From IMG/VR virus record IMGVR_UViG_3300031652_000001: a stretch of DNA of 64,000 nt. One strand, written 5' to 3'. Under the pieces are notes generated by a model. That model searched no databases, had not been told where the DNA came from, and saw nothing but the letters and a program-made list of their open reading frames with translations. The position numbers and the translations under genes were made by a program. Origin of the DNA: a virus. This document shows positions 10,372 through 47,423 of this stretch, in pieces (position 1 is the stretch's first letter; the number at the start of each line of letters is the position of its first letter).

Positions 10372-10917
10372 TTACCGGGTTTTGACCTCGACCCGGGTTG
10401 TCTGTTGAATATCGGCGCCGTTGATCGATTTGACATGCTCTTTGGTAAGTGCGGTCTTGATTGCTGTTTTGTTGGGGGGCCACTTCTGCCACGGTGGAAT
10501 CGGTTTGGGTTCCGTACGGTATTTTTTTGGAATCGCGTCAGCATCCGTTATCACCACCGAGGCCGGGTTCGTCCGTATTGCGAACTTGAAGGACTGAGAC
10601 CTCGCTTTACCATCCTCATACGGCTCCAGCTCCTCTTTCAGGAAGCCGGAAAGCTTCTCTTGGGCCTCTTTCACGCGCTCCATGGCGTTTTTCGCCGTTT
10701 CGGCCATCGCTTTGCATCGCGCAATGAAGACCTCACACTCATTATACAGTACCCCTGCTGCTTCTAGCCTGTCAACGGAATCATGAAGGGCCTTGATTTC
10801 GCGTTTCCGTTCCTCGACACGATCCTCCTCTTGGGAGAGTCGCTGAACAGCCAACTCCGCTTCGTTGACGATCTCGCCAAGATCGCCGAGGTTCACTGCT
10901 TCGTAAATTGTTCCCAT
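10372..10917 (-). CDS. Siphovirus Gp157-family protein
   Basis: Coiled coil followed by RTNPASVVI...IPKKY...PNKTAIKTAL...GA. Confidence 0.8.
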   Translation of the reverse strand: MGTIYEAVNLGDLGEIVNEAELAVQRLSQEEDRVEERKREIKALHDSVDRLEAAGVLYNECEVFIARCKAMAETAKNAMERVKEAQEKLSGFLKEELEPYEDGKARSQSFKFAIRTNPASVVITDADAIPKKYRTEPKPIPPWQKWPPNKTAIKTALTKEHVKSINGADIQQTTRVEVKTR

Positions 10918-10950
10918 CTTCTGTTTTCCTCCGAAAAAAAGTTTTCTTGT

Positions 10951-11008
10951 CTTCTGGTATCTCGCCAGGGCCTAAATAAGAGTATAGGCAAACAAAATTC
11001 GTTTGCAA
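10951..11008 (-). promoter_or_regulatory. promoter plus leader hairpin element, divergent copy A
   Basis: TTGCAA-N16-TATACT then AGGCC-CTGGC-GAGAT-ACCAG-AAG. Confidence 0.7.
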
Positions 11009-30139: not shown

Positions 30140-30162
30140 TCCCCATTCTCCAAAACAGGCAG

Positions 30163-31966: not shown

Positions 31967-32002
31967 ATTTTCTCTCCAAAAACCAAAACAGGACAATGAA
32001 AA

Positions 32003-32032
32003 GTATTACCATATCGCCTTCATATCGGTCAA
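32003..32032 (-). promoter_or_regulatory. sigma70-like promoter for the replication operon
   Basis: TTGACC...TGG-TAATAC with a GATATG direct repeat in the spacer. Confidence 0.45.
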
Positions 32033-32078
32033 GCGTTTTGCAGTACAGCAATTATATTTTTAATGATTAAGGAAATAA

Positions 32079-32954: not shown

Positions 32955-32958
32955 TTAC

Positions 32959-33300
32959 TCAACCTCCGTTTCTACCCCGTTTTAATCTGGCTTCAGCCTT
33001 CGATATGGCCTCTTGTTGCTCATCAAAAATAGTCGTTGCCCTCGATTGGGCCTGAGTCAAACACGTAAGACAATAATAAATTATCAGCTTTCGTCCTCCT
33101 TTTTTTCCAGGAGTGAAATTTAAAACAACTGATTCCATCCTACCCAATTCATGCAATCTCTTGCAGCGTCCAGCACATCGAATAAGGGTCTTGCGCCTGG
33201 CAGAAGCGCAATCAGGACATATACCCTTCCTGTCTGGACCCCACGTATTGAGATCTTTTCCACAGAGCCTACACGGCCTGCGGCGATCTTTCTTGTCCAT
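32959..33300 (-). CDS. double Zn-finger protein
   Basis: CRLC, CPDC, CAGRC, CLTC. Confidence 0.7.
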   Translation of the reverse strand: MDKKDRRRPCRLCGKDLNTWGPDRKGICPDCASARRKTLIRCAGRCKRLHELGRMESVVLNFTPGKKGGRKLIIYYCLTCLTQAQSRATTIFDEQQEAISKAEARLKRGRNGG

Positions 33301-33480
33301 CTAATCCGTCAGTAGTATCCGACCACCCTTGCGGTCCTCAAAATCTGCCACCCGCCGTTCCAGTACTTGCTCGCTACATGTTTCACACACATAGTTCGCC
33401 ACGCCATCTTGTGTGAGAAAACCCTTCGTAACTTGCACCATCTTTCCACATTTTGTACATCTAACTTGTTCATAATCCAT
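33301..33480 (-). CDS. small Zn-finger protein (59 aa)
   Basis: Own translation MDYEQVRCTKCGK...VCETC...; below the track cutoff, fills the gap exactly. Confidence 0.7.
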   Translation of the reverse strand: MDYEQVRCTKCGKMVQVTKGFLTQDGVANYVCETCSEQVLERRVADFEDRKGGRILLTD

Positions 33481-33727
33481 CTTTATTCTCCTTGTCGGGT
33501 TTAGCCAAAGTATCTACTTTTACCCAACCATCCTTACTATTTTTTGATAAAATTTTCCTAATTTCGCCATCTGTCAAATAAATCAACGGAACACCAGGTG
33601 TATCCAAAGACACCAAAATACCATCATCAGGAGCATAAACACCAAAACACCCACCCTTTACTGACCTATTGAGCCTCTCCCCCTTCTCCACCCTCTTTAC
33701 TATTGTCGCTATGTATTGATCCGACAT
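33470..33727 (-). CDS. hypothetical protein
   Basis: GGAGG RBS before MSDQY. Confidence 0.65.
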   Translation of the reverse strand: MSDQYIATIVKRVEKGERLNRSVKGGCFGVYAPDDGILVSLDTPGVPLIYLTDGEIRKILSKNSKDGWVKVDTLAKPDKENKDGL

Positions 33728-34112
33728 ATTTTTCCTCCATACCTGCAACAATAACTGTCGCTCTCGAAAGTAACCCCTTCATGAACTGAATACCAGCTTT
33801 CGCAATGACAGTTGATGGTTCATTAGACCTCGCACCCGACAATTTTTCAAGCTCCCCTTCAAGGAATTTGACTCTCTCTTTCGCCTTTTTGCAACCAAGC
33901 TTTTTCATCCCGGCCTTTTCGAGAATCCTCTTCACTATAACCGGCCAATGGTATGAGCACGTATTACAGCTCTCGTCAGAACCAAAATAGGGACATGGTT
34001 TTCCGCCCTTCAAAACCTTAAATAACGGACAACCTTCCACTAAAAAAGAAGTCAGTTTCAGTGTTAGATTTCCATCTTCATCAATGTTTTTTTCAGTTTC
34101 TTTTTCCTTCAT
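33666..34112 (-). CDS. hypothetical Cys-containing protein
   Basis: CP...CP...CNTC followed by a coiled coil. Confidence 0.65.
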   Translation of the reverse strand: MKEKETEKNIDEDGNLTLKLTSFLVEGCPLFKVLKGGKPCPYFGSDESCNTCSYHWPVIVKRILEKAGMKKLGCKKAKERVKFLEGELEKLSGARSNEPSTVIAKAGIQFMKGLLSRATVIVAGMEEKYVGSIHSDNSKEGGEGGEAQ

Positions 34113-34707
34113 CGTAGACCACCTTTATCGTTACCTCAGTCACATAAACCTCGGTATCCAAAGTATCCCCTATATCAGAAATTATCCTCTCTGCCTCCTC
34201 ATCTGAAACGAACTCGATGAGATCCGCACCCTGCATAAGTTCATTCCATTTGTCAGATGAAAACGAACCACCAACAGTCGACCGACCAATTCTGAACGTA
34301 TCAACATAACCAAGCGATATGGCTCCCCATACTGTCTTATTTCGAAAAAACTCCTCAGCTCTTCTCGATAAAAAACCAACACTACACTGATCACCACCAG
34401 AATAACAAAGAAGCTCGACATGATCATCGCTTGCACGAATTGAAAATCTTCTATCACCTGTCCCTTTATAAAAATCAAAAACATCCCTGTCCGCAGATGA
34501 CACTCTGAGAACCAAAATATTTTCATCCCCAACCCGTTTCAAGGAAACACCAGAAACATCATCTCCTTCAAATTCAACTTGCCTCGGCACTCCAGAGAAA
34601 ACAATTTCACCAGATACAATCAAACCTTTCGAAAATCTACTCCTTGTCTTCTCCTGTCTGGTCTTCTTCTTGCTCGGCTTTCTCACCATCCCATCCTTCT
34701 TCGACAA
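34093..34707 (-). CDS. hypothetical protein
   Basis: 204-aa ORF tiled with neighbours. Confidence 0.65.
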   Translation of the reverse strand: MSKKDGMVRKPSKKKTRQEKTRSRFSKGLIVSGEIVFSGVPRQVEFEGDDVSGVSLKRVGDENILVLRVSSADRDVFDFYKGTGDRRFSIRASDDHVELLCYSGGDQCSVGFLSRRAEEFFRNKTVWGAISLGYVDTFRIGRSTVGGSFSSDKWNELMQGADLIEFVSDEEAERIISDIGDTLDTEVYVTEVTIKVVYDEGKRN

Positions 34708-35593
34708 GCCTCTTTGTCATGATCCTTGCCGACATGATCAGATCGGCAACATCCTCAGGACCGCCCGTTTCGCCCATTGCACTCCAGTTGAAAATGAACT
34801 CCGTAGCCATCCGCTTAATTGAGAGATTCGCATCCAATTTCTTTAACCAATTCGAATACAGAACGTACATATCCGTCTCAGAATAACGACCCTCATCCCC
34901 AGACATCCCAGTGACATCAAGCCAACTCGATATGCTTTGTTCTCGGAGACTGTCTGGTTTTGAACTCGGACATCCAACACATTTCGTATCGGTAAGTGTT
35001 GAATATTTCCAACCACAAATTTTACCGGCTACATCAAGCTCAGAAACCCTCATTATCGGATCTGATTTGCACTGTGTAAACCGATCATCTCCGAGCATAC
35101 AGGACCTATCACCACCCTTCGAAACATAGAATGGACACGCCCTCGGAGCATCTTCATCCTTGGTCATCGGAACAGGACGGACAAAACAAACCGGAACACC
35201 TGTTTTCTCATCGTATATTTTGAACAAAATCTCCTTTCGGTACAAATCCATGGTTGTCTTTACACCAAAGGCTTCAGCAATATCAGAATTCCTTAGTATC
35301 CTAAAAATATCACCAGGCTCAACACTGATAGGACGGTCGATACAACAGTTTCCGACACCATCACAATCCGCATATTCGATTACGTCATCAACAGAAAGAC
35401 CTTTCCCTGCCTCTACACCTTGATCTGTTACAGACGGAACATCAAGTTGGCCCTTCTTCGGTTTCGGCATATTCCGTCTACGCTTCAAATAGAAATTCAT
35501 CGTCTCTATGATCTGGCGCCGTTTTTCTTTCCTTCTCTGTTCCTTCTGCTCCTTCTTCTTCTTACTATTGGACATCTTTTTTTTCTTGTTCAT
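34637..35593 (-). CDS. YkgJ-family Cys-cluster (Fe-S/Zn) protein
   Basis: CDGVGNCC, CPFY, C......R..QC..DP; Lys-rich N-terminus. Confidence 0.7.
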   Translation of the reverse strand: MNKKKKMSNSKKKKEQKEQRRKEKRRQIIETMNFYLKRRRNMPKPKKGQLDVPSVTDQGVEAGKGLSVDDVIEYADCDGVGNCCIDRPISVEPGDIFRILRNSDIAEAFGVKTTMDLYRKEILFKIYDEKTGVPVCFVRPVPMTKDEDAPRACPFYVSKGGDRSCMLGDDRFTQCKSDPIMRVSELDVAGKICGWKYSTLTDTKCVGCPSSKPDSLREQSISSWLDVTGMSGDEGRYSETDMYVLYSNWLKKLDANLSIKRMATEFIFNWSAMGETGGPEDVADLIMSARIMTKRLVEEGWDGEKAEQEEDQTGEDKE

Positions 35594-35609
35594 CCTATCC
35601 TCCGGAACA

Positions 35610-35882
35610 CTATCTACAAGATTTCATCTTCCCAAGCTCTTTGAGTATACCCTCCAGAGCGCGAGCCTGGCGCCCCTCTGCCTTCTCTATGCCCTCTATC
35701 GCCCTAATCACCTTAAGGCGGTCAGTATCCGACTGTGATGGCGACTGAGCCCCTTCAGCATCGCCACCAGAAAACAGATAAAGAACAACCAACACGAGAG
35801 CAACAATAAGCCAGTACCACACCGGAGGTCTGACTTTACTCCAACTATTCGACCGCATCATCTTCTCAGAATATGGAAGCAT
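35610..35882 (-). CDS. single-pass membrane protein
   Basis: WYWLIVALVLVVLYLF TM followed by a coiled coil. Confidence 0.65.
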   Translation of the reverse strand: MLPYSEKMMRSNSWSKVRPPVWYWLIVALVLVVLYLFSGGDAEGAQSPSQSDTDRLKVIRAIEGIEKAEGRQARALEGILKELGKMKSCR

Positions 35883-35883
35883 C

Positions 35884-36354
35884 TCACTCCATCCTTTGGC
35901 AAAGGAACGGATGGTTAAAACCACTCCTCCACAAAATCATCCCAAGCCCACCTTTTTTACACACATTATCAAAAGCCGGTATTAAACCCCTCTGAACAGC
36001 AACCGGCCGACAAAAAGAAAAAACACTATCAACCTGACCAATTATCTGGTCAATAGCATCACTCCTCAGAGACCACGGCTTCCCCTTGAATGACACTTTT
36101 CCAAATTTTATAACATCTATTAAGAATACTTTTTTACCCTTTATCGAACCAATAATACTGGCTCTAACCTGAGAAACGATCTTTCTGTTCGGAACATCAA
36201 TCTCGACACCACTCAGAGTCTCCCATGATGTACCAGTTTCCGTCATAGATATGACACATAACTGGTTTCCCTCTATCAAATATCCAACACTGTTGGCACG
36301 CTCAAACGATGGAAGGTTCCTTCGCGATATTGTCCTGAAATAATATTTTGGCAT
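35884..36354 (-). CDS. hypothetical protein
   Basis: 156 aa, GGAGA RBS within a predicted stem. Confidence 0.7.
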   Translation of the reverse strand: MPKYYFRTISRRNLPSFERANSVGYLIEGNQLCVISMTETGTSWETLSGVEIDVPNRKIVSQVRASIIGSIKGKKVFLIDVIKFGKVSFKGKPWSLRSDAIDQIIGQVDSVFSFCRPVAVQRGLIPAFDNVCKKGGLGMILWRSGFNHPFLCQRME

Positions 36355-36358
36355 TATA

Positions 36359-36484
36359 ATTCTCCAAAAAAATAAAGATTCCGCCCCCTAACCGCCTCGG
36401 TCGAGGCGGCCAGGAGACGATTTTTGGAGAAATGGGGGGGTGTCCTGTTGAAAACATAATGCAATATTCTGGATAAGAATGCAA
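36359..36484 (-). ncRNA. putative structured leader or small RNA with its own promoter
   Basis: TTGCAT-N17-CATTAT; C-rich 5' end; 17-bp stem (36382-36419) with four G-U pairs; outer TTCTCCAAAAA/TTTTTGGAGAA stem. Confidence 0.6.
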
Positions 36485-36513
36485 CAAATTTCACCCCTAA
36501 TTCAAAAAAAATT

Positions 36514-37263
36514 TCAGATTTCCACGTTTTTCTCCTGGTCATCATCCTCACCATCCTCATCATCCGTGTCCTCTACTACATCAGAGTAAGAATTCATCAC
36601 TATTGTCATAATCCTACAAGCATCATCCGCCGTCAACTCAGTCGTTGCACCACCTATCTGTTTTGACAGCGAAGCAAATTCCATATACGCAACAGCCATC
36701 GCAATAATGATCCCCTCCTCCGATGAGGACTCACCAATACAAAGTTGTAATCCAAATGTTGTGCCAACACTGGCAATGAATCCACCAGAACACTTCTCAA
36801 CTGCCTTCAGGTGAATAAAGAGACGATGATTATCATCTGTAGACCGACTAATATCCATGAAATCATTCGAAACGAAAAAACACCGGTGAACCCTGTCGTT
36901 CTGAACATATCCCCGCCACAATACCCTCCTGGTGGTCCCAACCGTTGTCTTCTCCTCTACCTTCCAGAAGAATGGTCGAACACCCCATCGACCACGCTCA
37001 ACGAGGTCGACAACAGCTTCTGCCATGCTTACCCTAACCCTTCCATTGCTGACATAATCGACAACAGCCTGTATTTCACCAAGCCGTGATCTCATATCGC
37101 CTTCATCCTGTGCACCACGTATATATGTTTCAGCGGCGACGTTTATCTTATCCAAAACAACCTGTCGCCTTGTCATCCTTAAACGCCGCTTCTGAATTTC
37201 CTCATCCCGGAACTTCTTTTTTGCCTCCGAGATAATCCCCTCAATAATTGATCCGTTTGACAT
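36514..37263 (-). CDS. hypothetical protein
   Basis: 249 aa, acidic tail, downstream of promoter element B. Confidence 0.75.
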   Translation of the reverse strand: MSNGSIIEGIISEAKKKFRDEEIQKRRLRMTRRQVVLDKINVAAETYIRGAQDEGDMRSRLGEIQAVVDYVSNGRVRVSMAEAVVDLVERGRWGVRPFFWKVEEKTTVGTTRRVLWRGYVQNDRVHRCFFVSNDFMDISRSTDDNHRLFIHLKAVEKCSGGFIASVGTTFGLQLCIGESSSEEGIIIAMAVAYMEFASLSKQIGGATTELTADDACRIMTIVMNSYSDVVEDTDDEDGEDDDQEKNVEI

Positions 37264-37325
37264 TTTTCCATCCCTCTAAACCAGTGTGAAAACAATTTCA
37301 GTTTTACCAGGTAAACATTCTCCAT

Positions 37326-37383
37326 CTTCAGGCAACTTGCCTGGCATCTATATATATTGTACTTATCCAGTATATAAAGTCAA
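37326..37383 (-). promoter_or_regulatory. promoter plus leader hairpin element, copy B
   Basis: TTGACT-N16-TACAAT then AGATGC-CAGGC-AAGTT-GCCTG-AAG. Confidence 0.85.
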
Positions 37384-37407
37384 TAAACCCGGGGCTTCTT
37401 TCCGGAT

Positions 37408-37692
37408 CTCTTTCTCTTTTAAAATTTCGATTTTTTAGATCTTCTAATTTTAGAAAATTTTTAAAAATTTTTAACTCACACTTGGTAGAAAAAACGGAAG
37501 TTTTTTTCGGTTTTTCTGATAGAGGGGGACGTCGAAGCGCGAAGCGCGAGACAACCCTGATTCTGCTCAGCTGCATATACTTAACTCTAGATCTACTTTG
37601 GGTGACATTTATGTCGCCCTTAACCCGACATTTTTGTCACCCTTAACCCGACATTTTTGTCGGGGTCTAACCCGACATTTTTGCCGGGGTTA
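37408..37692. other. putative replication origin (AT-rich segment plus iterons)
   Basis: AT-rich 37408-37516 near four palindromic repeats. Confidence 0.6.
37600..37692. repeat. four palindromic iteron-like units GACA-TTTW-TGYC
   Basis: Cores start at 37604, 37627, 37650, 37674 (periods 23/23/24). Confidence 0.9.
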
Positions 37693-38403
37693 GCGATACC
37701 CACCTCCAGCCGGTATTTTATCGAAAAAAGTTTCCTCAATTATTTCATAACACCTTGTTTCAACAGCGTTTATATCCATGCATCCATCAACGATGACATT
37801 GTTCTCAGGCCATGGGTTATAAGAACCCCACCCTTTGTACAGCTTGCAGACCTCTGTTTGCATCAAAGTATTTTCATAAATCTCCGGAGAATCAGTTTTT
37901 GAAATACGCCTACTCTCAACTTCATCCACTGAAACATCAAGGATGATAGTTAGGTCTGGAAACAACAACCCCTCCGACCTGTCCATCCATACCCGCATAT
38001 CCCTAAGATAGGACATTTTATCCGGAAGAGTTTTTTCACCGAACTTCATAGGGTCATTTAAAAAATCCTTTGCTCCCTGATAAATCAATGTTGAAGCATA
38101 ATACCGATCACAAATAACCCATTTACCAGTAGAAAGAGGCCACTCTATTTCGCTGATGACATGATCTTTCCTGTCAGCACGAAACAAAAGCTTCATAGCC
38201 TCATTACAAGGGGGTGGAACCTCACTCTTTAACACCGAGCGAATGAATGTCCCAATAGGTCCAGTGCTCGGTTCACATGTCCAAATAACATTTCCTTCCC
38301 CAAGTTTTTTGGACAATTTATCGAAAAGAAGCTTCGATTGTGTTGTCGTTCCTGCACCATCAGCACCATCAAAAACGATGAACCTTCCTCGTTCAGTCAT
38401 CAC
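37690..38403 (-). CDS. tmk: thymidylate kinase
   Basis: FIVFDGADGAGTTTQ, EPS, LLFRADR..H, ICDRY..S..YQG, PDLTIILDV. Confidence 0.92.
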   Translation of the reverse strand: MMTERGRFIVFDGADGAGTTTQSKLLFDKLSKKLGEGNVIWTCEPSTGPIGTFIRSVLKSEVPPPCNEAMKLLFRADRKDHVISEIEWPLSTGKWVICDRYYASTLIYQGAKDFLNDPMKFGEKTLPDKMSYLRDMRVWMDRSEGLLFPDLTIILDVSVDEVESRRISKTDSPEIYENTLMQTEVCKLYKGWGSYNPWPENNVIVDGCMDINAVETRCYEIIEETFFDKIPAGGGYR

Positions 38404-38812
38404 AACGACCTTTCAGATATTTGTATTTTTTACCATCAGTGTAAACAGAGCCCCATAGGTACCCCCACCAAAAGAACAAAGCATCTCCGATACCGGCCAC
38501 AACCGGAAAGAGAAAAAGCCAATGCCAATGACTAACCAGTAATAGAATTGCGTTCACAACCAACCATGTGGTTGCACAAATTAAACCAGCAAACATCGGT
38601 GCTATGTGAACCCCAGAAAAACTTAACTCACCATTAGTATCATATCTACAGTAGGCAAAATACCACCTGCCGTCCACATTGCACGGATACGGCTTGAATG
38701 CCAGTGGCTTCCATCCTCGCTTCACATAGGCAACCAACAAATGACTACCTTCATGCACAGAGTTCTGAATGAGCCATGTTGCAACAGCAACCAAAAATGA
38801 AATCATGACCAT
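38393..38812 (-). CDS. small membrane zinc metallopeptidase-like protein (M50-like)
   Basis: VHEGSH in a hydrophobic segment, IAP, GD, three TMs. Confidence 0.65.
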   Translation of the reverse strand: MVMISFLVAVATWLIQNSVHEGSHLLVAYVKRGWKPLAFKPYPCNVDGRWYFAYCRYDTNGELSFSGVHIAPMFAGLICATTWLVVNAILLLVSHWHWLFLFPVVAGIGDALFFWWGYLWGSVYTDGKKYKYLKGRCDD

Positions 38813-39339
38813 CTCGAATATCTCCTTTTTTCAAGATAGGATAATCCCTCAATTCCTCTATGGGAAACCCACTGATTTACAGCTTGATTGCTCCCCCAAG
38901 AATCATCCGGAAGTTCACGATTCAAATATGAGACAATGTGTTTAAATTTGAAAATATTTTCACTATCAGCATAAATCACAGATAGCGATAGGTCATTTCT
39001 GAGCACAGCTTCAGTGAATCCAGATAGAAGTTTTCCATATCGAAGATACTCTTGAAACATCGGAACCAAAATATCGATGACATCGTTTTTGATGGCCTTA
39101 ACATATCTGGTTACCCAACCAGATCCACAACACCAGTCACAAGAACTTGGACTGTCACAACCACATGAAACAACCATCGATTTACGAGGCCCAATGACAA
39201 AGTATGAACCAGGAATACCTTCTTCCTCCACCCTGCTTTTCCAAAGAAGAGAAGCAAGCTGCATCACACGACTATAACTGTGTTCCTCACAAAGAACACT
39301 TACAGCCCTGACAAGAATATCGTCTTTGGAATCAACCAT
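38803..39339 (-). CDS. hypothetical protein
   Basis: CGC...CDWCCGSG and SGF..AVL.NDL...AD..N...WGS...V..W phage domain. Confidence 0.7.
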   Translation of the reverse strand: MVDSKDDILVRAVSVLCEEHSYSRVMQLASLLWKSRVEEEGIPGSYFVIGPRKSMVVSCGCDSPSSCDWCCGSGWVTRYVKAIKNDVIDILVPMFQEYLRYGKLLSGFTEAVLRNDLSLSVIYADSENIFKFKHIVSYLNRELPDDSWGSNQAVNQWVSHRGIEGLSYLEKRRYSRWS

Positions 39340-39340
39340 C

Positions 39341-39817
39341 TCAAGCCTCTATCTGTGTTCCATAAACAGGAACAACATCTCCATCGAGACGAATATTGAA
39401 ACCGTACAATGTGAGCATCTTATAGACAAAATCTGCACACAGATCCAAAGCCCCAATATGACGCATAATCTCACCACAGAAGGCAAGGTCTCCTTCACCA
39501 ATATTTCCATCGTGGGATGTCATATCCAAAACCAAGACAACCCACACATCAGCATTAAAAAACTCGCCAATAAAACAATGTTTTCCGACGATATCGACAC
39601 GACCTTTTTCCCGCAAAAATACCTCAGCCGTTCCTTTGAAATCCATACCAACACGTTGACCAATAATCTGATCCCTGCGGATTTCGTTACAGGTCAACGT
39701 AGAATGAATCACAACAAGATTTTTCATGGACACCTGAGAAAGTATGCCAGGTCGGATTTCTTCGGGAAAAATCATATCACCTCGGTATTGTCTAAATGTA
39801 CTCCAAGGAGAGCACAT
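39341..39817 (-). CDS. hypothetical protein
   Basis: AGGAG RBS, tiles with neighbours. Confidence 0.6.
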   Translation of the reverse strand: MCSPWSTFRQYRGDMIFPEEIRPGILSQVSMKNLVVIHSTLTCNEIRRDQIIGQRVGMDFKGTAEVFLREKGRVDIVGKHCFIGEFFNADVWVVLVLDMTSHDGNIGEGDLAFCGEIMRHIGALDLCADFVYKMLTLYGFNIRLDGDVVPVYGTQIEA

Positions 39818-39861
39818 ATTTTCTCTCCTCTAGGACGGTCTCCATAATGACTTCTTTATAA

Positions 39862-40278
39862 CTACCGGTCCTCTACAGCTTTACCGGCAACAATTTTCAC
39901 ACGAGTTATATAAAACACGGCCTCGTCATTGTCATCATGATACCTCCATTTGATAGGATCATCATGTCCATTTTTACTCAGCTTCATACCTTTGAATACC
40001 TCCGGAAGTTCACTTTTTTTCATCCTCGTTGCCCCAGGAATAGTCATGATCCAACGATCATGACTACGCCAGAAATTACCATCTTCATTTTCAATGATGA
40101 AAAGCTCATTAGCTATGCTTTCCTCAAGTGTTCTCACATCATCGAGTAAGGAATCAATATGCTTCCATTTCCTGGACAACTCCTTTTCGAGCCTTCTCCT
40201 TGTAATCTCCATCTCAAACACTTCAGCTTTGTTTTTATCAAGGACAATCTTCAATTGTTTCAGCTCATGATGACTCAT
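39862..40278 (-). CDS. hypothetical protein with coiled coil
   Basis: Start revised to MSHHEL (GGAG RBS). Confidence 0.65.
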   Translation of the reverse strand: MSHHELKQLKIVLDKNKAEVFEMEITRRRLEKELSRKWKHIDSLLDDVRTLEESIANELFIIENEDGNFWRSHDRWIMTIPGATRMKKSELPEVFKGMKLSKNGHDDPIKWRYHDDNDEAVFYITRVKIVAGKAVEDR

Positions 40279-40555
40279 CTTTTTTTCTCCCAGAAGTGTG
40301 AACCACCATCTCTTCTTCGGAATCAGATATGGCAAGACACAGAATGTCGACAAATAATGATTGAACATCACCAATCGGCTCGTTTACGGCATAATTGTCA
40401 ACTGATTCGGACCAAGCATTAGGAAGGACATCTCTCAAAAAATCGATAATATCTTGACGACCAAAACCAGATGCCTCGACCAATTTATGAATTTGGGCAA
40501 TTTTCTTTGCCCCCTTCTCATAAGCAATTCTTGCTTTATCAAGTTTTTCGTTCAT
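40265..40555 (-). CDS. hypothetical protein
   Basis: 96 aa, GGAG RBS. Confidence 0.65.
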   Translation of the reverse strand: MNEKLDKARIAYEKGAKKIAQIHKLVEASGFGRQDIIDFLRDVLPNAWSESVDNYAVNEPIGDVQSLFVDILCLAISDSEEEMVVHTSGRKKDESS

Positions 40556-40558
40556 TGA

Positions 40559-41104
40559 TTATTTCTCCACTTTTTTATCAATCACAAATTGACCCTTTGG
40601 ACCTTCAGCTAGCAACCCGTGATAGTGGGTTAGCAACAAATCCCAAACAGCACGTTTTTGAGCTATCGGGATCATATTAGCCTTCTTATATTCACCCGGA
40701 ATCGCCTCCCATCTTCTACCAGGTATATTACGCCATGCCCTATTGGTCTCAGGGCTGTATGGAGTACGAACCACAAGACGTCCATCCATCTCCGTGATAA
40801 AAACCTCGGGTTTTAGCTTGCAGCGCTTCTCAATCCTATCAGCGAGCCTCACAAAACCAAGCTCCCTGAGCCTCATCAACGGTTCAAAGATTTCTACGCC
40901 TTTCTGAATAACGGCTATCTGATAGACAAGCTTGTTTGCTTCCTGACGTAATCCCTCAGGAACGTCAACAGAGCCCAGAAGCCTGGCACGACAATCAGGC
41001 CCCACCCCTGTCTCGACAGAAACAGCGTCCACCAGGGGGCGCCCACAGGCCGCACAGCGTGTTGCTACCATCTTCGCCTGAGGAGAATTCTCATATCCGG
41101 ACAT
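40559..41104 (-). CDS. DUF6011 Zn-finger plus HARP-like domain protein
   Basis: RCAACGRPL....S...GVGPDC; TPYS......RNIPGRRW. Confidence 0.75.
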   Translation of the reverse strand: MSGYENSPQAKMVATRCAACGRPLVDAVSVETGVGPDCRARLLGSVDVPEGLRQEANKLVYQIAVIQKGVEIFEPLMRLRELGFVRLADRIEKRCKLKPEVFITEMDGRLVVRTPYSPETNRAWRNIPGRRWEAIPGEYKKANMIPIAQKRAVWDLLLTHYHGLLAEGPKGQFVIDKKVEK

Positions 41105-41547
41105 TACCGACCACCTTTCTTCATAGTGGAGACGTAGTCAGCAAGGGAATTCAAGAACATCTCGTGTTCTTTCTCCGGAACATCCGCCAAGAGGGAATCG
41201 ACCATTTTTTTGAATTTCTCGACCTGCTTGCTACCAACAGCAAGAACGATACTGTTGAAACCAGTGTTCTCGGTCATGAAATACTCGGGATAGCTTCCAC
41301 CAAAAGCCTTCTTGACCCTCTGAAAACACGTCGGACAAACAGCAAACCAACCAAGGCTGTCATCATTAACCTCAGCCTCAACCTCATCGGTGACGTGAGA
41401 GCCGTATTCAACAATATGGATACGGTGTAATGGAATAGTGGCTTTGCCGCAAAGATGGCACGGTTCTTGACCATCAAGACATCCCTGATTTTCGTTACGG
41501 GTAATGACTTTTTGTGACTTCATCAGTGTTGAGATTTCAATCCGCAT
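41104..41547 (-). CDS. Zn-finger hypothetical protein, first gene after element C
   Basis: PCHLCGK...AVCPTC; AAGGAG RBS. Confidence 0.75.
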   Translation of the reverse strand: MRIEISTLMKSQKVITRNENQGCLDGQEPCHLCGKATIPLHRIHIVEYGSHVTDEVEAEVNDDSLGWFAVCPTCFQRVKKAFGGSYPEYFMTENTGFNSIVLAVGSKQVEKFKKMVDSLLADVPEKEHEMFLNSLADYVSTMKKGGR

Positions 41548-41557
41548 TTTTCATCTC

Positions 41558-41644
41558 CTTCGGACATCTCGTCCGGCATCTACGAACAAACTTACTCATT
41601 CTAAATGCGAAGTCAAGTTCATGTTTTCATGTTTTGGTGTTTTT
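41558..41644 (-). promoter_or_regulatory. promoter plus leader hairpin element, copy C
   Basis: AAAACACCAAAACATG(AAAACATG)AAC-TTGACT-N16-TAAGTT then AGATGC-CGGAC-GAGAT-GTCCG-AAG. Confidence 0.85.
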
Positions 41645-41672
41645 TAGAGAAAAGATAAAAGCCCCACCACAC

Positions 41673-42134
41673 TTACGTTTTTCTTTTCTTTGCCCATCTC
41701 GAAGGTAAGGCCCCACCATCGGACAACCAATCACTGAGGGATAAAATCAGATCGGCGAATTCCACCTCAACACTGGTGTTTACCTCATCACGTCTATTGA
41801 GAACCATATCGGCCAGATTCAACATCCTGCCAAGTTTTTGATTCGGGTTGATCTCCTCCCTCTCTATCGTCGGCTTTCCGACTTTCTTTACAGGAACAGG
41901 TTTTGAATCTGTTGCCTTGGCAACCGGTCTGGGTTCTGGAATAGATTTTGCTATGTTTATAGGCCAAGCATCCTCATTCCCGCATCGACCACCGGCTTTG
42001 CAGAAATCACATTTTTTATTCGGAAGAGAAGGATCTATCGAAGATAGATCACACTTCCCAACCGAAAACAACCGACATTTCATGACGCCATCAATTTTGA
42101 CACAAGCTGTCGTTATGTGTTTTTTCTTTGCCAT
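41673..42134 (-). CDS. Cys-rich hypothetical protein
   Basis: 153 aa, AGGAG RBS. Confidence 0.7.
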   Translation of the reverse strand: MAKKKHITTACVKIDGVMKCRLFSVGKCDLSSIDPSLPNKKCDFCKAGGRCGNEDAWPINIAKSIPEPRPVAKATDSKPVPVKKVGKPTIEREEINPNQKLGRMLNLADMVLNRRDEVNTSVEVEFADLILSLSDWLSDGGALPSRWAKKRKT

Positions 42135-42164
42135 TTTTTACTCCTGACGATTTTTTCTGAAACG

Positions 42165-42494
42165 TTACCTCTTTTTCTTCTTTGACAGGGATTCGAGATG
42201 CGCTTGGGCGATCCTGCCTGCTTCTTCATCACTTTCTGCATCAAAATATTCCTGAGGCATCGTCATGAATTCTTCTTTGGTGAGCGCTCTTTTTTCAGGA
42301 AGCAACTCAACCTTGTCAACCTTGTACCGAGCAATAAAACGATTGCAATCCGGATTGTAACAACGGACTTCCATCGTTGTTTCATCCATCATGATCATTC
42401 TCAAAGGAGCTGTCGGGTGACATCTTCCATGAATATGAGCCGGAAAATCTCCGCACAACTCACAACCTACTGTTTTAGCTTTATTTTTTGCCAT
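42165..42494 (-). CDS. Cys/His-rich hypothetical protein
   Basis: CELC..HGRCH..C....C. Confidence 0.7.
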   Translation of the reverse strand: MAKNKAKTVGCELCGDFPAHIHGRCHPTAPLRMIMMDETTMEVRCYNPDCNRFIARYKVDKVELLPEKRALTKEEFMTMPQEYFDAESDEEAGRIAQAHLESLSKKKKR

Positions 42495-42506
42495 TTTTTT
42501 ACTCCA

Positions 42507-42821
42507 TTACTTGTTTTCTTGAAAACTATCTCGAAGCTCACGCATCCTCTTTCGGACACAACTCCGCTGACACCTGTCCGCTGCACAAGTTGGCGCCGTT
42601 TCGAACGGAAGGCTATCGCAAAGCTGATCTGCAACATACCTAACCTCATCATTGTTCGTCTTGTATGAAATCCAACAACCAGCAATATACTGGTCGAACA
42701 CACATCTTACAGCTGTTTTTGATTCAGACCGACGACCGTATTTATCAACAAAATGAACAGCTTCACTTTTGTCTGAAAAAAGAAAATCAACAAAATTCTG
42801 AATTTTTTGTTCCATGAACAT
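42507..42821 (-). CDS. hypothetical protein, first gene after element D
   Basis: 104 aa. Confidence 0.6.
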   Translation of the reverse strand: MFMEQKIQNFVDFLFSDKSEAVHFVDKYGRRSESKTAVRCVFDQYIAGCWISYKTNNDEVRYVADQLCDSLPFETAPTCAADRCQRSCVRKRMRELRDSFQENK

Positions 42822-42829
42822 ACCTTTTT

Positions 42830-42908
42830 CTTCGGGCTTCTAGCCCGGCATCTGAATAAAAAGGTATCATCTTCGTAGGTGAAGTCAAGTTCATGTTTTG
42901 GTGTTTTT
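42830..42908 (-). promoter_or_regulatory. promoter plus leader hairpin element, copy D
   Basis: AAAACACCAAAACATGAAC-TTGACT-N16-TACCTT then AGATGC-CGGGC-TAGAA-GCCCG-AAG. Confidence 0.85.
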
Positions 42909-42934
42909 GATTTTTTAGGTAAAAACAGGAAAGA

Positions 42935-43969
42935 TCAATCCATCGCAAGCCAGGAATGAGAATCGATACCTGCCTTTGACATTGCTGCCAAAAGTTCCCG
43001 ATAGGACATCTTCTCGATAACCTTTCGGTTCTGAATAACCCATGCCCTAAACTTTTTCACTGCCGTCTTCCAGCCCCTCTGTGGTGGTATTGTTCTGGGC
43101 TCGTTCATTTTGTCGCGCTTGTCCGCTATCAAAAAATCCTTGTACCCGGCTTCAATCCGAACCTGAGGAGTATCAATCACGATCTCCTGGTCACCAGGAG
43201 GAGCGACATCTACACCCCTCAGCTCCCGTTCTTGAATCTTTGGACCAACCCCCTGTGGATTCTTCTTAAACTGATCCACAACGCCCCTGGCCATCGCCAG
43301 GGCCTGCTTATAGGTCTTGGCTCGATGTATCTGACTCGCAAATTGACTAATCAACCTCAAAGTATTTGGATCCTTAATATAATCGAGATCATACAAAGCA
43401 AATTCATTGACATTTTTGCCGCGCTTCCCTGCATTTGTCATGTCAGTAATATGAAAAGAACTTGCAAATCGGTGAACTCTAATGACCGACGTCTCAAGAG
43501 TTTTCCCTATTGGCATCTCTTCTGCAAGAACTTTACTTTCAGCCAAATAATCCCTCTGTCTCAATGACACGCTTTCACGGTATGGTTTAGAACCTGCTTT
43601 ACCAGTAATACTCGGAAGCTTTCCCGTTGAAAGGTAAGTATCGATGGCCTTTACCACAAATTTCATCGGCGAAAAATCAGGTGTAAACGACCGCATCAAA
43701 ACAGCCTTATACAGCTTCAGATCATTCGGATCCTCACTGTTCATCTTGACACCCATCTTCTTCTCAGCATCCTGAGCAGCACCAAGAAGGAGTCCAAGTG
43801 CATTTGGATTATAATATCGTTTCTTTTTGGACCGAATGTCGTACTGGATAATTTTGCTCCCAAGTACCATATCAAATAACTTCGGCGTCGCCTTCTTACC
43901 ACTTGGTAAAGTCACTTCTGAAAGAACCCCAGTAGAAAACCCACCAACATAGCTCCTGTTCCTCAACAT
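42935..43969 (-). CDS. putative internal virion (cargo) polyprotein with two LRxRxY signals
   Basis: MLRNRSY...VLSE and internal LRQRDYLAE..VLAEE; second module paralogous to the N-domain of 43995-45185. Confidence 0.7.
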   Translation of the reverse strand: MLRNRSYVGGFSTGVLSEVTLPSGKKATPKLFDMVLGSKIIQYDIRSKKKRYYNPNALGLLLGAAQDAEKKMGVKMNSEDPNDLKLYKAVLMRSFTPDFSPMKFVVKAIDTYLSTGKLPSITGKAGSKPYRESVSLRQRDYLAESKVLAEEMPIGKTLETSVIRVHRFASSFHITDMTNAGKRGKNVNEFALYDLDYIKDPNTLRLISQFASQIHRAKTYKQALAMARGVVDQFKKNPQGVGPKIQERELRGVDVAPPGDQEIVIDTPQVRIEAGYKDFLIADKRDKMNEPRTIPPQRGWKTAVKKFRAWVIQNRKVIEKMSYRELLAAMSKAGIDSHSWLAMD

Positions 43970-43994
43970 CTCACACTCCTTCCTCAAAGAGACG

Positions 43995-45185
43995 TCAGAG
44001 AGACGTCAGAAGACCAGTCTCTTTCTCAAAAATACTACGAAGTCTGTCGACATAAATATCGTCATACTCCGCTTTCACCTTGTTGCTATATCCCCTTTTC
44101 GCTCCCATCGTAATCCGTCCAAAGGTAACCTTGTAAGTGTCCATTGGTGTCAACTTTATCTTCACATAGTTGATGCCACCTTTGGCCTTCGGAAGCTTAA
44201 ACGAAAGAGAATCCCTATCACCGGCAATATTTTTCGCCCCCGTCATTGCAATAAACCTGTTTCCCCCAAGTTGCCTCATTATTTCCTTCGGAATCGATAA
44301 GTCCGTTTTTGGCTTATCCTCTTTTTCCTTCTTTGGCTTCGGAATGCCCTTGCTCGGAGTGAAGGCCCCAACATCAACCATCGAACTCAAAAAAACTGAA
44401 GCCCTATTCCCAATATCGATAGCGAAATTGGGACCATAATCCTTGGATTTTACCCCCAGCTCCTGCAACACCTGAAAAAGAACTGGATCACTCAAAGCAT
44501 CAGGTTTGTAACCAGATATCTGAAGAGCCTTCAACGCCGTCGGCGCTTTCACTGTACTCCCTGTTATTTTACCTTTGACGACAAGAACATATTCTTTCAT
44601 CTTAGGAAACCTCAGAACATTATCCTTCCTCGGATTAGGAACAGACTTAGGAGTCTTCGTAGAAGGAGCAATACCGGGCACTGTGGCTGATTTCTTCGTT
44701 GGCCTTGCCCCTTCGTTGCCCGCATTATAAGAAGGCTTCACACGCCCTCTGGTTGACGCCTTCAATGTCCCCATGGTCTTCGTCCTGGCCATCTCATTAT
44801 GAGATGACAAATCAGCTCCAGACGGAGGGACATGAACACCTTTCATCGTGATCTCTTCAAGCCATGGAATCTTTCTGTCATGGTTCTGAATAGAAAGCTT
44901 CTCAGCCGATTCCAACGCATCATACCCCACGGACAGGGCCTGTGCATATGTCCTCGCTCGCTTCATCCAGTTAATGGCTTTCTGGATAGGAGTAATCGAT
45001 TTCGACATCTCATCAAAATATATGACGAACCGATTTACCGTTGCTCCTTTTTGACCAGCAGTTCTCAACTCTGTTACTGACACATAGTTGTTTCCTCTAT
45101 GTATACGAAGAACACCGGTATCCAAAATAGCACCGGGTTTCACCGCTTCTGCCAAGTACGCTCGCCTCCTCAATGTCTTCGTCAT
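43995..45185 (-). CDS. putative internal virion multidomain protein
   Basis: Start revised to MTKTLRRRAYLAE (AGGAGG RBS); C-terminal QLGGNRFIAMTGAK...ETGL domain. Confidence 0.75.
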   Translation of the reverse strand: MTKTLRRRAYLAEAVKPGAILDTGVLRIHRGNNYVSVTELRTAGQKGATVNRFVIYFDEMSKSITPIQKAINWMKRARTYAQALSVGYDALESAEKLSIQNHDRKIPWLEEITMKGVHVPPSGADLSSHNEMARTKTMGTLKASTRGRVKPSYNAGNEGARPTKKSATVPGIAPSTKTPKSVPNPRKDNVLRFPKMKEYVLVVKGKITGSTVKAPTALKALQISGYKPDALSDPVLFQVLQELGVKSKDYGPNFAIDIGNRASVFLSSMVDVGAFTPSKGIPKPKKEKEDKPKTDLSIPKEIMRQLGGNRFIAMTGAKNIAGDRDSLSFKLPKAKGGINYVKIKLTPMDTYKVTFGRITMGAKRGYSNKVKAEYDDIYVDRLRSIFEKETGLLTSL

Positions 45186-45195
45186 TGGTAGCCTC

Positions 45196-45344
45196 CTACT
45201 GTACCTTCTTTGCCCTGGCAATTGTCGCCGCCGGTATTGTGTCAAAAACCTTCTGACCCATGAAATTATGACTCACAACATATTCCACTTTGACTACCTT
45301 ACCCTTTGAATAAGTAGTCGTGTAAATGTCTTCAATGGTTTCAT
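45196..45344 (-). pseudogene. small gene with an apparent 1-nt frameshift near the start
   Basis: AGGAG+ATG gives only 16 aa; the -1 frame reads TIEDIYTTTYSKGKVVKVEY...KVQ* up to the next RBS; span is 149 nt. Confidence 0.4.
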
Positions 45345-45353
45345 GTTTTTCTC

Positions 45354-45899
45354 CTATGAAACCGACCTTGCAAAACTCTTTGCGGCCTCTTTTGACTGTT
45401 CCACTGTTTTTATTTTTCTACCCCGGAACTTGTTATCAACCAAATCGGCAGAATCAGGAACTACTTTCCCGACAGGAAAACAACAGTAGGCTCTATGACT
45501 CCAACCACAATATCCCCGCTCTCTATTTGAATATCCTATTGACTTAAATTTGTGAGTAGATTTGGCTTTCAATGGCTTTTCTATTCCAAGCTTGCGATAA
45601 AATTTTTGCCATCTACTTTCTTCTTTCTGCCGTCTTTTTCTGCCCCTACCTTCGCTTAAAACCTCAGCAGACATAAAAAGACCAATGATGGACTCCATCA
45701 TCCCCATGGACCGCAATATGTTATCAGCTGTAACAAATGTCGCTATGGAAGACAGCTTTCTCTCCTGATTACCAACACGGAGAAACCACATCTTCCCTTC
45801 CTTTGACAACGTCGCAATACCGAACTTGGTCTCCTTTCGATATCGAGGCGGTTCCTTCGATGGCCAACTCCTAGATGTTTTCTCCCACTCAGTATTCAT
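45354..45899 (-). CDS. hypothetical two-domain basic protein with VLSE linker
   Basis: C-domain SIGYS...GWSHRA...AKSFARSVS. Confidence 0.7.
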   Translation of the reverse strand: MNTEWEKTSRSWPSKEPPRYRKETKFGIATLSKEGKMWFLRVGNQERKLSSIATFVTADNILRSMGMMESIIGLFMSAEVLSEGRGRKRRQKEESRWQKFYRKLGIEKPLKAKSTHKFKSIGYSNRERGYCGWSHRAYCCFPVGKVVPDSADLVDNKFRGRKIKTVEQSKEAAKSFARSVS

Positions 45900-46150
45900 T
45901 TTCTATCCTTGAAGCAATCGCATTTGAATCGCTTCACAACGACACCTGGCCGTATTAGTTTACCTGGTATTAAGCCCTTGCAGACAGGACACATGTACAT
46001 CCCCTTACCAACATACGAAAACCGTTTCCCGTTCAGGATAATATCCCGTCGTCTTCGAAATATTGAAATCACAACAAGAGAAACAAACAGAAAGAAAAAC
46101 AGAGAACATGCCAAGATACAGATTACATTTCCCAAACCAAACCAATCCAT
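45896..46150 (-). CDS. small membrane-anchored Zn-ribbon protein
   Basis: N-terminal TM, RRRR, CPVC...CDC. Confidence 0.65.
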   Translation of the reverse strand: MDWFGLGNVICILACSLFFFLFVSLVVISIFRRRRDIILNGKRFSYVGKGMYMCPVCKGLIPGKLIRPGVVVKRFKCDCFKDRK

Positions 46151-46168
46151 TTCTTAAAGTGTTTTTCA

Positions 46169-46534
46169 TCAGTACTTCGAAAAATATGATTTGCCTTTGA
46201 ACTTATTTATGAATGCTTTGATCTCTCGAACATCCTCAAGAGCAAGCATATCATTTTCAGACAAACCAGCTTTTTTTGCACTGTCAGAAACAACTTTCAT
46301 TGCAGCTTCAAAAGCAAGAATTCCTCGCCTAAATTTATTTGTAAAGGCCCTCCTAATTTCCATTGAGAATTTCGTCCAAAGAAGACTCTTTTCCGATTCA
46401 TCAATACTGGTATATGATCTCCTCCTTAACGAATTCTCTGTTTTCGAACTACAATTCTTTTCAGTCTTGTTACGGGACCGTTTTCTTTTCTGTTTACGGT
46501 CTCCTTCTTTGATTTTAATCCCGTGCCACTGCAT
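46169..46534 (-). CDS. basic protein with LRRRSY..IDE signal
   Basis: Start revised to MQWHG (GAGGAGG RBS). Confidence 0.65.
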   Translation of the reverse strand: MQWHGIKIKEGDRKQKRKRSRNKTEKNCSSKTENSLRRRSYTSIDESEKSLLWTKFSMEIRRAFTNKFRRGILAFEAAMKVVSDSAKKAGLSENDMLALEDVREIKAFINKFKGKSYFSKY

Positions 46535-46544
46535 AATAACCTCC

Positions 46545-46925
46545 TCAAGACACCGTAAAAACCAGGTCATACTTGTCCAATGGATCTTCTACAGATCCAG
46601 CACCGGCAGCAACAATATTTCCGTACAAGACCTGTTTCTTTCCCTTGTTGTCCGAAAATGGAAATTCAAGCTTCCATGTCTTTTTCTCAGGTTGCCCGCT
46701 TTTGTTCTTCGTATAGAAGTTCTCAGTTGACTTCCAGTTAATACCTTTCTTGTTCATTTCATCGTAAAACCACTTTATAGGTCTCCAATACTGATCTGAA
46801 AAGAACCCGTTGAATCTGGTGCCAACGATCCCGAACAAAACCTTCTTCGCCGCCTGTTTCGTTTTTCCATCAAGCGATGAACCACCTTTTCCCTCGCCAA
46901 GATATGACCTCTTCCTTAAAGTCAC
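46545..46925 (-). CDS. putative internal virion protein with LRKRSYLGE signal
   Basis: GTG start with AGGAGG RBS. Confidence 0.7.
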   Translation of the reverse strand: MTLRKRSYLGEGKGGSSLDGKTKQAAKKVLFGIVGTRFNGFFSDQYWRPIKWFYDEMNKKGINWKSTENFYTKNKSGQPEKKTWKLEFPFSDNKGKKQVLYGNIVAAGAGSVEDPLDKYDLVFTVS

Positions 46926-46934
46926 AGCGTCCTC

Positions 46935-47423
46935 CTATTCGTTGTCAATGGCTGCCCATATGCTTCCGGCAGCAACAGTACCAGCAACACCAAGGACAAC
47001 TCCTGTAATTATACCAATACTAAGTTTATGCGTTTGCCACCATGAATCCCTGATTTTCTGTAGAGCCTCTTCCTTCTGATCTATTGTCTTGTCGGCACTC
47101 ATCAGCTCCCGCTCCTGGATCTGGATGATGGTAAGCAGAGCTTTCTTGTTGCTCAGTGCCAACTGGTAGACCTCGTCATAGGAGATCCGAAGCTCGACAG
47201 CTGCACCAGCTTTGGTCTCATCCAGAAGTACCCCATTAAACGGTGCTGGATCACCCTCTGACAAACCAGCTGCATCTCCTGAGCTTGGAGCCAAGTATTC
47301 TGGCATCACTGATACCTCCTCAGCTTTCTCGGTAATAGGGAGCCGTTCAGGAGTGCTTGGAGGAGGGGTGTTCTTTGTACATCCAATAACGAACAATGAA
47401 AAAATCAAAATAAAACGCAACAT
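46935..47423 (-). CDS. lipoprotein with C-terminal TM (unimolecular spanin-like)
   Basis: Lipobox VIG-C at residue 15, Pro-rich linker, coiled coil, C-terminal GIITGVVLGVAG TM. Confidence 0.65.
   Translation of the reverse strand: MLRFILIFSLFVIGCTKNTPPPSTPERLPITEKAEEVSVMPEYLAPSSGDAAGLSEGDPAPFNGVLLDETKAGAAVELRISYDEVYQLALSNKKALLTIIQIQERELMSADKTIDQKEEALQKIRDSWWQTHKLSIGIITGVVLGVAGTVAAGSIWAAIDNE

Follow-up and report, generated by a model that had tools for sequence, protein, structure and literature searches.

We found four copies of a short cassette, in which a promoter is coupled to a hairpin just downstream of it, in the IMG/VR virus record IMGVR_UViG_3300031652_000001. The stretch analyzed (hereafter, the window) is 64,000 nucleotides (nt) long, and its source is a large uncultured tailed phage. 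The cassette is very probably a selected module that consists of a promoter and a transcribed hairpin. In the copies designated B, C, and D, each on the minus strand, TTGACT is followed by 16 nt, a TAnnnT sequence, 6 or 7 nt, AGATGC, a perfect stem of 5 base pairs (bp) with an N-A-G-N-N loop, and AAG (Table 1). The coordinates and sequences that an earlier note, made from the letters of the window, had given for these three copies were exact on minus-strand reading. The block that it had reported upstream of C and D was also present; this common A-rich block, AAAACACCAAAACATGAAC, lies just upstream of the -35 box in both copies. The -35/-10 pairs are predicted to be good host-type promoters for the main sigma factor of the host.

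The four sites were distinguished from chance matches as follows. Only three intergenic TTGACT-N16-TAnnnT sites were found in the window, namely those of B, C, and D, and the perfect 5-bp/NAGNN hairpins of the cassette class on both strands of the window were the same three. The bare count of three perfect hairpins was not above that in shuffled sequences (mean, 1.7); all three are preceded by an identical 6-mer, followed by an identical 3-mer, and located at a fixed distance from the three intergenic promoters. A covariance model was built from eight distinct cassette versions in the window and its relatives. The scan of the window with this model, as proposed in the earlier note, separated the four sites (45 to 35 bits; E value, 7e-9 to 2.5e-6), and nothing else was significant (next match, 12.7 bits; E value, 0.57). 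No further copy was found in the window by the model even with the filters off, and a relaxed hairpin scan of the window gave chance sites only. Copy A, the divergent fourth copy, is a true member. The C-A mismatch described in its stem reflects a private G-to-A change, as three relatives have a perfect stem (CTGGC-GAGAT-GCCAG).

In the 5-bp model of the hairpin, 39 of the 40 cells were paired. Stem position 2 is G-C, A-U, or U-A, and position 4 is G-C, A-U, or G-U, while positions 1, 3, and 5 are invariant (C-G, G-C, and C-G, respectively). Thus, the compensating stem changes that had been claimed hold for positions 2 and 4, together with the loop ends, but not for the other three positions. 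In the loops (AAGUU, GAGAU/AAGAU, and UAGAA/UAGGA), positions 1 and 5 can pair in all eight sequences (A-U, G-U, or U-A), and the folding program also paired the first and last loop bases. In the corresponding 6-bp model, 47 of 48 cells were paired, double-sided changes occurred in three of the six pairs, and the covariation score was reached by none of 500 shuffles; when the partner was slid out of register, pairing fell to 21-40%. The letters of the 5-nt NAGNN loop had been given correctly, but its ends pair, and the hairpin is described at least as well by a 6-bp stem capped with an A-G-N triloop (N = U, A, or G) as by the 5-bp stem with a pentaloop. The isolated hairpins had folding energies of -7.6 to -10.1 kcal/mol (z, -2.6 to -3.4).

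The G-U pairs are found at position 4 in the D variants and at the loop-closing pair in C and A. As each of them would be a C-A mismatch on the opposite strand, a structure on the sense strand, namely in the transcript, is favored; the sole exception is the private mutation in A, which goes the opposite way. We infer that the hairpin acts as RNA. The extruded DNA hairpin that the earlier note had offered as an alternative is disfavored by the same G-U pairs. The asymmetry also bears on the idea that the hairpin itself, with 6 bp and a 3-nt loop, is a promoter of the phage N4 type, used by a phage-borne RNA polymerase that starts at AAG, about 11 nt from the loop center. N4 early promoters have a 5- to 7-bp stem, a 3-nt loop, and conserved flanks, occur in few copies, and lack a host -35/-10 pair. 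The geometry of the cassette resembles these promoters, and the spacing between the loop and AAG is constant. However, the G-U pairs point to the sense strand and not to the template strand, every copy has a -35/-10 pair with a 16-nt spacer that is invariant in relatives, the phage has a baseplate and is myovirus-like, and no N4-type polymerase gene was seen in the window. We therefore consider this idea extremely improbable.

Conservation was examined in the orthologous regions of about eight relatives (89-99% identity), in which each cassette was aligned. Exact-protein look-ups placed the window on a 162-kb metagenome contig and gave these close relatives; no near match to the window was found in the phage collection or in IMG/VR. 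No variable column was observed in the -35 box (0/24), the 5' flank (0/23), the 5' arm (0/20), or AAG (0/12), and two each were observed in the loop (2/20) and the 3' arm (2/20), compared with 12/64 in the spacer, 5/27 in the discriminator, and 27/160 in the 40 nt upstream. In the hairpin block, 4 of the 95 columns were thus variable, as opposed to 44 of the 251 in the spacer, discriminator, and upstream DNA, a fourfold difference (Fisher p = 8e-4), and the -35 and -10 boxes were invariant. The two changes in the 3' arm are the private mismatch in A and a change to GTCCG in cassette D of three relatives, which makes a G-U pair. In cassette C of L005 and L006, the loop is AAGAT, and the loop-end pair is changed from G-U to A-U. 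Among the four paralogs, in which the spacers are dissimilar, 13 positions are invariant: the A-G start, the pairs at stem positions 1, 3, and 5, the A-G of the loop, and AAG.

The four units are paralogs, and C and D are clearly related through the upstream block; a hairpin of no function of its own might therefore have been carried along by promoter duplication. The fourfold lower variation of the block in orthologs argues against such a passenger, as does the retention of the stem in a more distant relative (see below), and we regard this explanation as very unlikely.

The informative distant case is L301, an intermediate relative in which the protein of the Gp157-like gene behind copy A is 70% identical. 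Upstream of this gene, L301 has TTGCAA, a different 16-nt spacer, TATACT, 7 nt, AGGCC, CTGGC-GGAA-GCCAG, and ATG. L301 thus retains both promoter boxes, the 5' flank, and the entire stem of copy A, and the remaining leader is unrelated; a GNRA tetraloop (GGAA) replaces GAGAT, and ATG replaces AAG. This observation suggests that the stem matters more than the letters of the loop, as would be expected for a structural element, and counts against strict recognition of the loop and flank.

The position of the hairpin was constant relative to the -10 box in all four copies (6-7 nt plus the 5- to 6-nt flank). In contrast, its distance to the start codon varied from about 14 nt in C to 63 nt in B (36-63 nt in copies A and B). 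The hairpin is thus tied to the 5' end of the transcript and not to translation initiation. From the usual promoter spacing, transcription would start at the A of AGATGC or AGGCC, and the hairpin would then occupy about +6/+7 to +21 of the transcript. A coding role of the ATG in AGATGC was considered and rejected: the frames have 3, 18, and 23 codons with no common peptide, and that of D stops at the TAG of the loop.

We tentatively favor the reading, at a probability somewhat short of even, that the hairpin is a 5' stabilizer or insulator of early messages. In this scheme, a promoter for the main sigma factor of the host would start the transcript with a short fixed leader, consisting of five or six unpaired bases (AGAUGC or AGGCC), a GC-rich hairpin (with either a pentaloop on 5 bp or an A-G-N triloop on 6 bp), and AAG. 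The hairpin would set the fate of the 5' end of early or DNA-metabolism messages; it might prevent 5'-end-dependent decay and insulate the downstream ribosome site from what lies around it, and the conserved first bases might serve start-site choice and promoter escape. This reading is based on the start-tied position, the compensated pairing, the tolerance of another loop and 3' flank in L301, and the lack of any feature of a lambda nut site. Such a role has precedents, as 5'-proximal stem-loops stabilize the ompA message of Escherichia coli and the aprE leader of Bacillus subtilis.

Several points weigh against a stabilizer. Protective hairpins in E. coli tolerate only a few unpaired 5' bases, fewer than the five or six here. 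AGATGC, the A-G of the loop, and AAG are invariant in B, C, D, and all the close relatives despite fully diverged spacers, and this strict conservation suggests that the sequence is read by something. The covariation comprises few independent events, from four paralogs and one clade only, and template switching in small palindromes could yield some compensatory changes without selection on RNA.

The main rival is accordingly a docking site, in which a phage or host RNA-binding protein would recognize the hairpin and its flanks on the nascent early transcript and then ride with the polymerase, in nut-like processive antitermination, or control translation or timed decay. The 13 invariant positions and the low variation of the hairpin block in orthologs are consistent with this idea, as is the co-orientation of the entire window. 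In cassette C, AAG is part of the AAGGAG ribosome site of the 147-amino-acid (aa) gene, and in cassette D, the ribosome site lies within a few bases after AAG; a bound protein could occlude these sites. Close behind the cassettes are genes for several small Cys-rich proteins and for a protein whose N-terminus is very basic (34637-35593), although these are leads only. On the other hand, no RNA-binding family was recognized among the neighboring proteins, and look-alikes of the first proteins behind C and D were uninformative. In addition, L301 has replaced both the loop and AAG, and the hairpin is not at a constant distance from the start codon. A docking site is possible, but we find it on balance doubtful.

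The specific version of this idea in the earlier note, membership in the boxB/nut kind, did not hold. The boxB hairpin of lambda has a 5-bp stem with a GNRA-like pentaloop, in which G is first, A is last, and one base is flipped out. The loops of the cassettes are not GNRA-like, as their ends pair, and no boxA, which in nut sites lies slightly 5' of boxB, was found near any copy: matches to CGCUCUUA or to the rrn-type boxA with up to one or three mismatches were at or below chance, with none near 10950, 37330, 41560, or 42830 on the minus strand. An arginine-rich antiterminator similar to N was not recognized, and no such family was hit among the neighboring proteins. A simple scan of 30000-47000 for intrinsic terminators gave few convincing ones between genes on the minus strand, so that an antiterminator might have few targets of this type in these operons. 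Antitermination is a possible, minority reading of the role of the cassette. In a broader form, the hairpin and its fixed flanks would be an address tag on chosen transcripts of the host polymerase, read by a small phage protein for resistance to termination or for timed translation or decay; this seems unlikely. CsrA-type GGA loops and a sigma-dependent pause in AGATGC were also considered and dropped, as the letters do not fit across the copies.

Another type of explanation acts at the DNA level. The cassette might be an operator at +7 to +21 for a phage regulator, or a recombination linker by which genes are moved together with their promoter, with its stem-loop as a weak attenuator of transcription from upstream, of the kind of the PeSL (promoter-early stem-loop) cassettes. 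PeSL cassettes, described in the T4-type phages RB49 and phi1, are built from a sigma70-type early promoter with an A/T-rich stretch and a GC-rich stem-loop (Arbiol et al. 2010, PMC2839356); they are similar in parts to the present cassettes, lie beside orphan genes, and mediate shuffling (PMC2839356). The present cassettes also head orphan genes, C and D have the upstream block in common, and stem positions 1, 3, and 5 are invariant in the manner of operator half-sites. Furthermore, the gene content near the cassettes differs among close relatives: the 147-aa gene is deleted in L005 and L006, and a 109-aa gene is missing in L004. However, the deletion junctions are inside genes and not at cassettes (about 6109-6118 in L005/L006 and about 6285-6309 in L004; window 41118-41515 and 42144-42480), and recombination between cassettes was not seen among the roughly eight close relatives. 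The non-contacted positions of an operator need no complementarity, whereas complementarity is maintained here at positions 2 and 4 and at the loop ends, and the G-T pairs are confined to one strand. The short hairpin (-8 to -10 kcal/mol) is followed by AAG and purines instead of a T-run, so that it is a poor intrinsic terminator by sequence, and there are four copies, not dozens. Taken together, a DNA-level element appears quite improbable.

The distribution of the cassette was studied in collections of metagenome, viral, and prokaryote sequences. The promoter-plus-flank pattern matched 56 metagenome and 9 viral stretches, in which the stem was present only in a close relative, L017, and the others paired at chance level. 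With the hairpin pattern, 221 matches were obtained in genomes of viruses and prokaryotes; their complementarity was at chance level (17%, with 14% expected), and none had the promoter. A stricter pattern and a pattern for copy A had no matches in viral contigs. The Listeria phage LIS04 and a faecal contig, which are distant relatives by their helicase, contained no match to the covariance model. With Rfam, there was no hit at the gathering score in the window, and two chance-level hits fell elsewhere in 37200-43000. As far as these collections go, the cassette appears to be specific to this phage clade.

Table 1. Positions of the four cassettes and of the first gene behind each of them in the window.
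Feature	Coordinates	Strand	Sequence or description
Cassette A, overall	10951..11008	-	divergent copy; 34.9 bits, E 2.5e-6; heads Sipho_Gp157-like gene and helicase block
Cassette A, promoter	11008-10981	-	TTGCAA 11008-11003; 16-nt spacer; -10 TATACT 10986-10981; then 7 nt
Cassette A, leader	10973-10951	-	AGGCC 10973-10969; CTGGC/GAGAT/ACCAG 10968-10954; AAG 10953-10951
First gene behind A	10372..10917	-	181 aa; Pfam Sipho_Gp157
Cassette B, overall	37326..37383	-	40.7 bits; 63 nt ahead of 249-aa gene; just downstream of iteron-like repeats
Cassette B, promoter	37383-37356	-	TTGACT 37383-37378; 16-nt spacer; -10 TACAAT 37361-37356; then 6 nt
Cassette B, leader	37349-37326	-	AGATGC 37349-37344; CAGGC/AAGTT/GCCTG 37343-37329; AAG 37328-37326
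First gene behind B	36514..37263	-	249 aa; acidic; no family match
Cassette C, overall	41558..41643	-	includes A-rich upstream block; 41.9 bits; heads 147-aa gene
Cassette C, promoter	41616-41589	-	TTGACT 41616-41611; 16-nt spacer; -10 TAAGTT 41594-41589; then 7 nt
Cassette C, leader	41581-41558	-	AGATGC 41581-41576; CGGAC/GAGAT/GTCCG 41575-41561; AAG 41560-41558
First gene behind C	41104..41547	-	147 aa; zinc-ribbon-like; only in this phage clade; absent from L005/L006
Cassette D, overall	42830..42907	-	A-rich upstream block 42907-42889; 45.4 bits, E 7e-9; heads 102-aa gene
Cassette D, promoter	42888-42861	-	TTGACT 42888-42883; 16-nt spacer; -10 TACCTT 42866-42861; then 7 nt
Cassette D, leader	42853-42830	-	AGATGC 42853-42848; CGGGC/TAGAA/GCCCG 42847-42833; AAG 42832-42830
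First gene behind D	42507..42815	-	102 aa; Cys-rich; no family match; start is second ATG

The genes behind the cassettes form four blocks. Block A contains the Gp157-like gene, a winged-helix protein gene, and a helicase gene, and block B begins with the gene for the 249-aa protein and continues into replication genes. Block C runs from the zinc-ribbon-like orphan through DUF6011 on to thymidylate kinase, and block D comprises the genes for the 102-aa Cys-rich protein and a 109-aa protein, and an HNH gene. The view that the units are promoter-plus-hairpin modules heading co-oriented early or DNA-metabolism gene blocks is thus supported. Other promoter-like sites nearby, such as TTGACC-N18-TAATAC at about 32030 and that of a long leader at 36380-36500, have no cassette hairpin; the cassette therefore marks a subset of promoters. 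The genes directly behind D and C (41104-42815, minus strand) encode small Cys-rich proteins with CxxC pairs, which are zinc-ribbon-like and have no family match.

Some further observations were made around the cassettes. The leader at 36381-36500 (minus strand) is of a second kind: a weaker promoter-like site is followed by a C-run and a GC-rich hairpin of 18 pairs, which directly precedes the ribosome site of a 156-aa gene, and no AGATGC-type hairpin is present. The region at 37577-37689 (minus strand), which separates the thymidylate kinase gene from cassette B, contains four tandem units of about 23-24 nt, all of them small palindromes of the GACAAAAATGTCGGG type; located beside an AT-rich tract, they resemble the iterons of a replication origin. 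An 82-aa open reading frame (ORF) over promoter B that ends inside the hairpin (37328-37576, minus strand) is called as a gene in some relatives but is probably no gene, as L001 and L003 have a 1-nt deletion and no gene call there. In the A-rich block upstream of C, the lineage of the window has a duplication of the eight bases AAAACATG (window 41625-41632) that L001 and L003 lack. Six bases, TGAAGA, are duplicated directly after hairpin B in L001 (about 14646-14651) and L003.

All the long ORFs of the window are on the minus strand, in agreement with the co-orientation reported earlier, and the GC skew is strongly negative along the entire window. A baseplate wedge protein gene was recognized, from which the phage looks like a myovirus. 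Also recognized were genes for an intein-containing DnaB helicase, a primase, a RecA-like protein, and two more helicases, as well as for ParB-like proteins, Dam, ThyX, thymidylate kinase, a Sipho_Gp157-like protein, a Tad6 homolog, and an HNH endonuclease. The DnaB-type helicase is most similar to helicases of large Listeria and Bacillus phages (about 32% identity), and the host is probably Gram-positive. The intein of this 845-aa helicase (27602-30139, minus strand) has a LAGLIDADG endonuclease domain according to precomputed Pfam hits of relatives. Through hits of the same type, a 181-aa protein (45354-45899, minus strand) among the basic proteins just upstream of cassette D was assigned to Pfam Tad6 (PF25188). 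The protein at 34637-35593 (minus strand, 318 aa) has an extremely basic N-terminus of about 50 residues with K and R runs and no family match; it may be a nucleic-acid binder, judging from this N-terminus.

Early gene control in large uncultured phages is an almost unknown field, and in the cassette, a host-type promoter and a defined RNA structure at the 5' end are joined within about 60 nt. Should the hairpin do no more than protect the 5' end, the cassette would be a convenient natural part that combines a promoter with a leader. Should the hairpin be read by a phage protein, it would be a new RNA-protein switch, and an address tag would represent control of the nut or RegB type with no sequence relationship to any known system.

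Among the known systems, the lambda nut site resembles the cassette in its 5-bp stem and 5-nt loop, in its transcription shortly after early promoters, and in the co-oriented phage genome. The cassette differs in having no boxA, a non-GNRA loop with paired ends and A-G at positions 2 and 3, and a relative (L301) that tolerates a different loop; moreover, the nut hairpin is tens to hundreds of nt from the start, whereas that of the cassette is about 6-7 nt from the predicted start. The translational operators of T4 and RB69 (the gp43 hairpin and the regA and gene 32 sites) are similar to C and D in that a small hairpin lies beside the ribosome site of early or replication genes. However, they are single-copy and placed relative to the start codon, while the cassette hairpin is fixed relative to the promoter and, in A and B, is 36-63 nt away from the start codon. 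The stabilizer hairpins of ompA and aprE have in common with the cassette a small stable hairpin near the 5' end of the message, a ribosome site after it, and a position tied to the start. Their action is largely sequence-independent, and they are located no more than a few bases from the 5' end, whereas the cassette has a predicted five or six unpaired bases before the stem, and its flanks and the A-G of the loop are conserved in the clade.

By anatomy, the closest described kind is the PeSL cassette. The stem-loop of PeSL serves as a terminator or attenuator and varies in position, most often separating the promoter boxes or overlapping them; PeSL cassettes occur in dozens of copies, and recombination between them has been shown. 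In contrast, the hairpin of the present cassette is always at about +6/+7 to +21 (predicted), with fixed flanks and no T-run, and there are four copies in 64 kb. The two have in common a dispersed intergenic location and the same parts, namely a strong early promoter of the host sigma70 type with an A/T-rich stretch, a stem-loop rich in GC (often GGGC...GCCC-like), and a ribosome site with a start codon. The promoter part of PeSL is recognizable in all four copies (TTGACT, or TTGCAA in A, with the 16-nt spacer and TAnnnT), with the A-rich block upstream of C and D. Orphan genes in plastic regions accompany both, and one subclass of PeSL has its stem-loop downstream of the -10 box, as in the cassettes described here.

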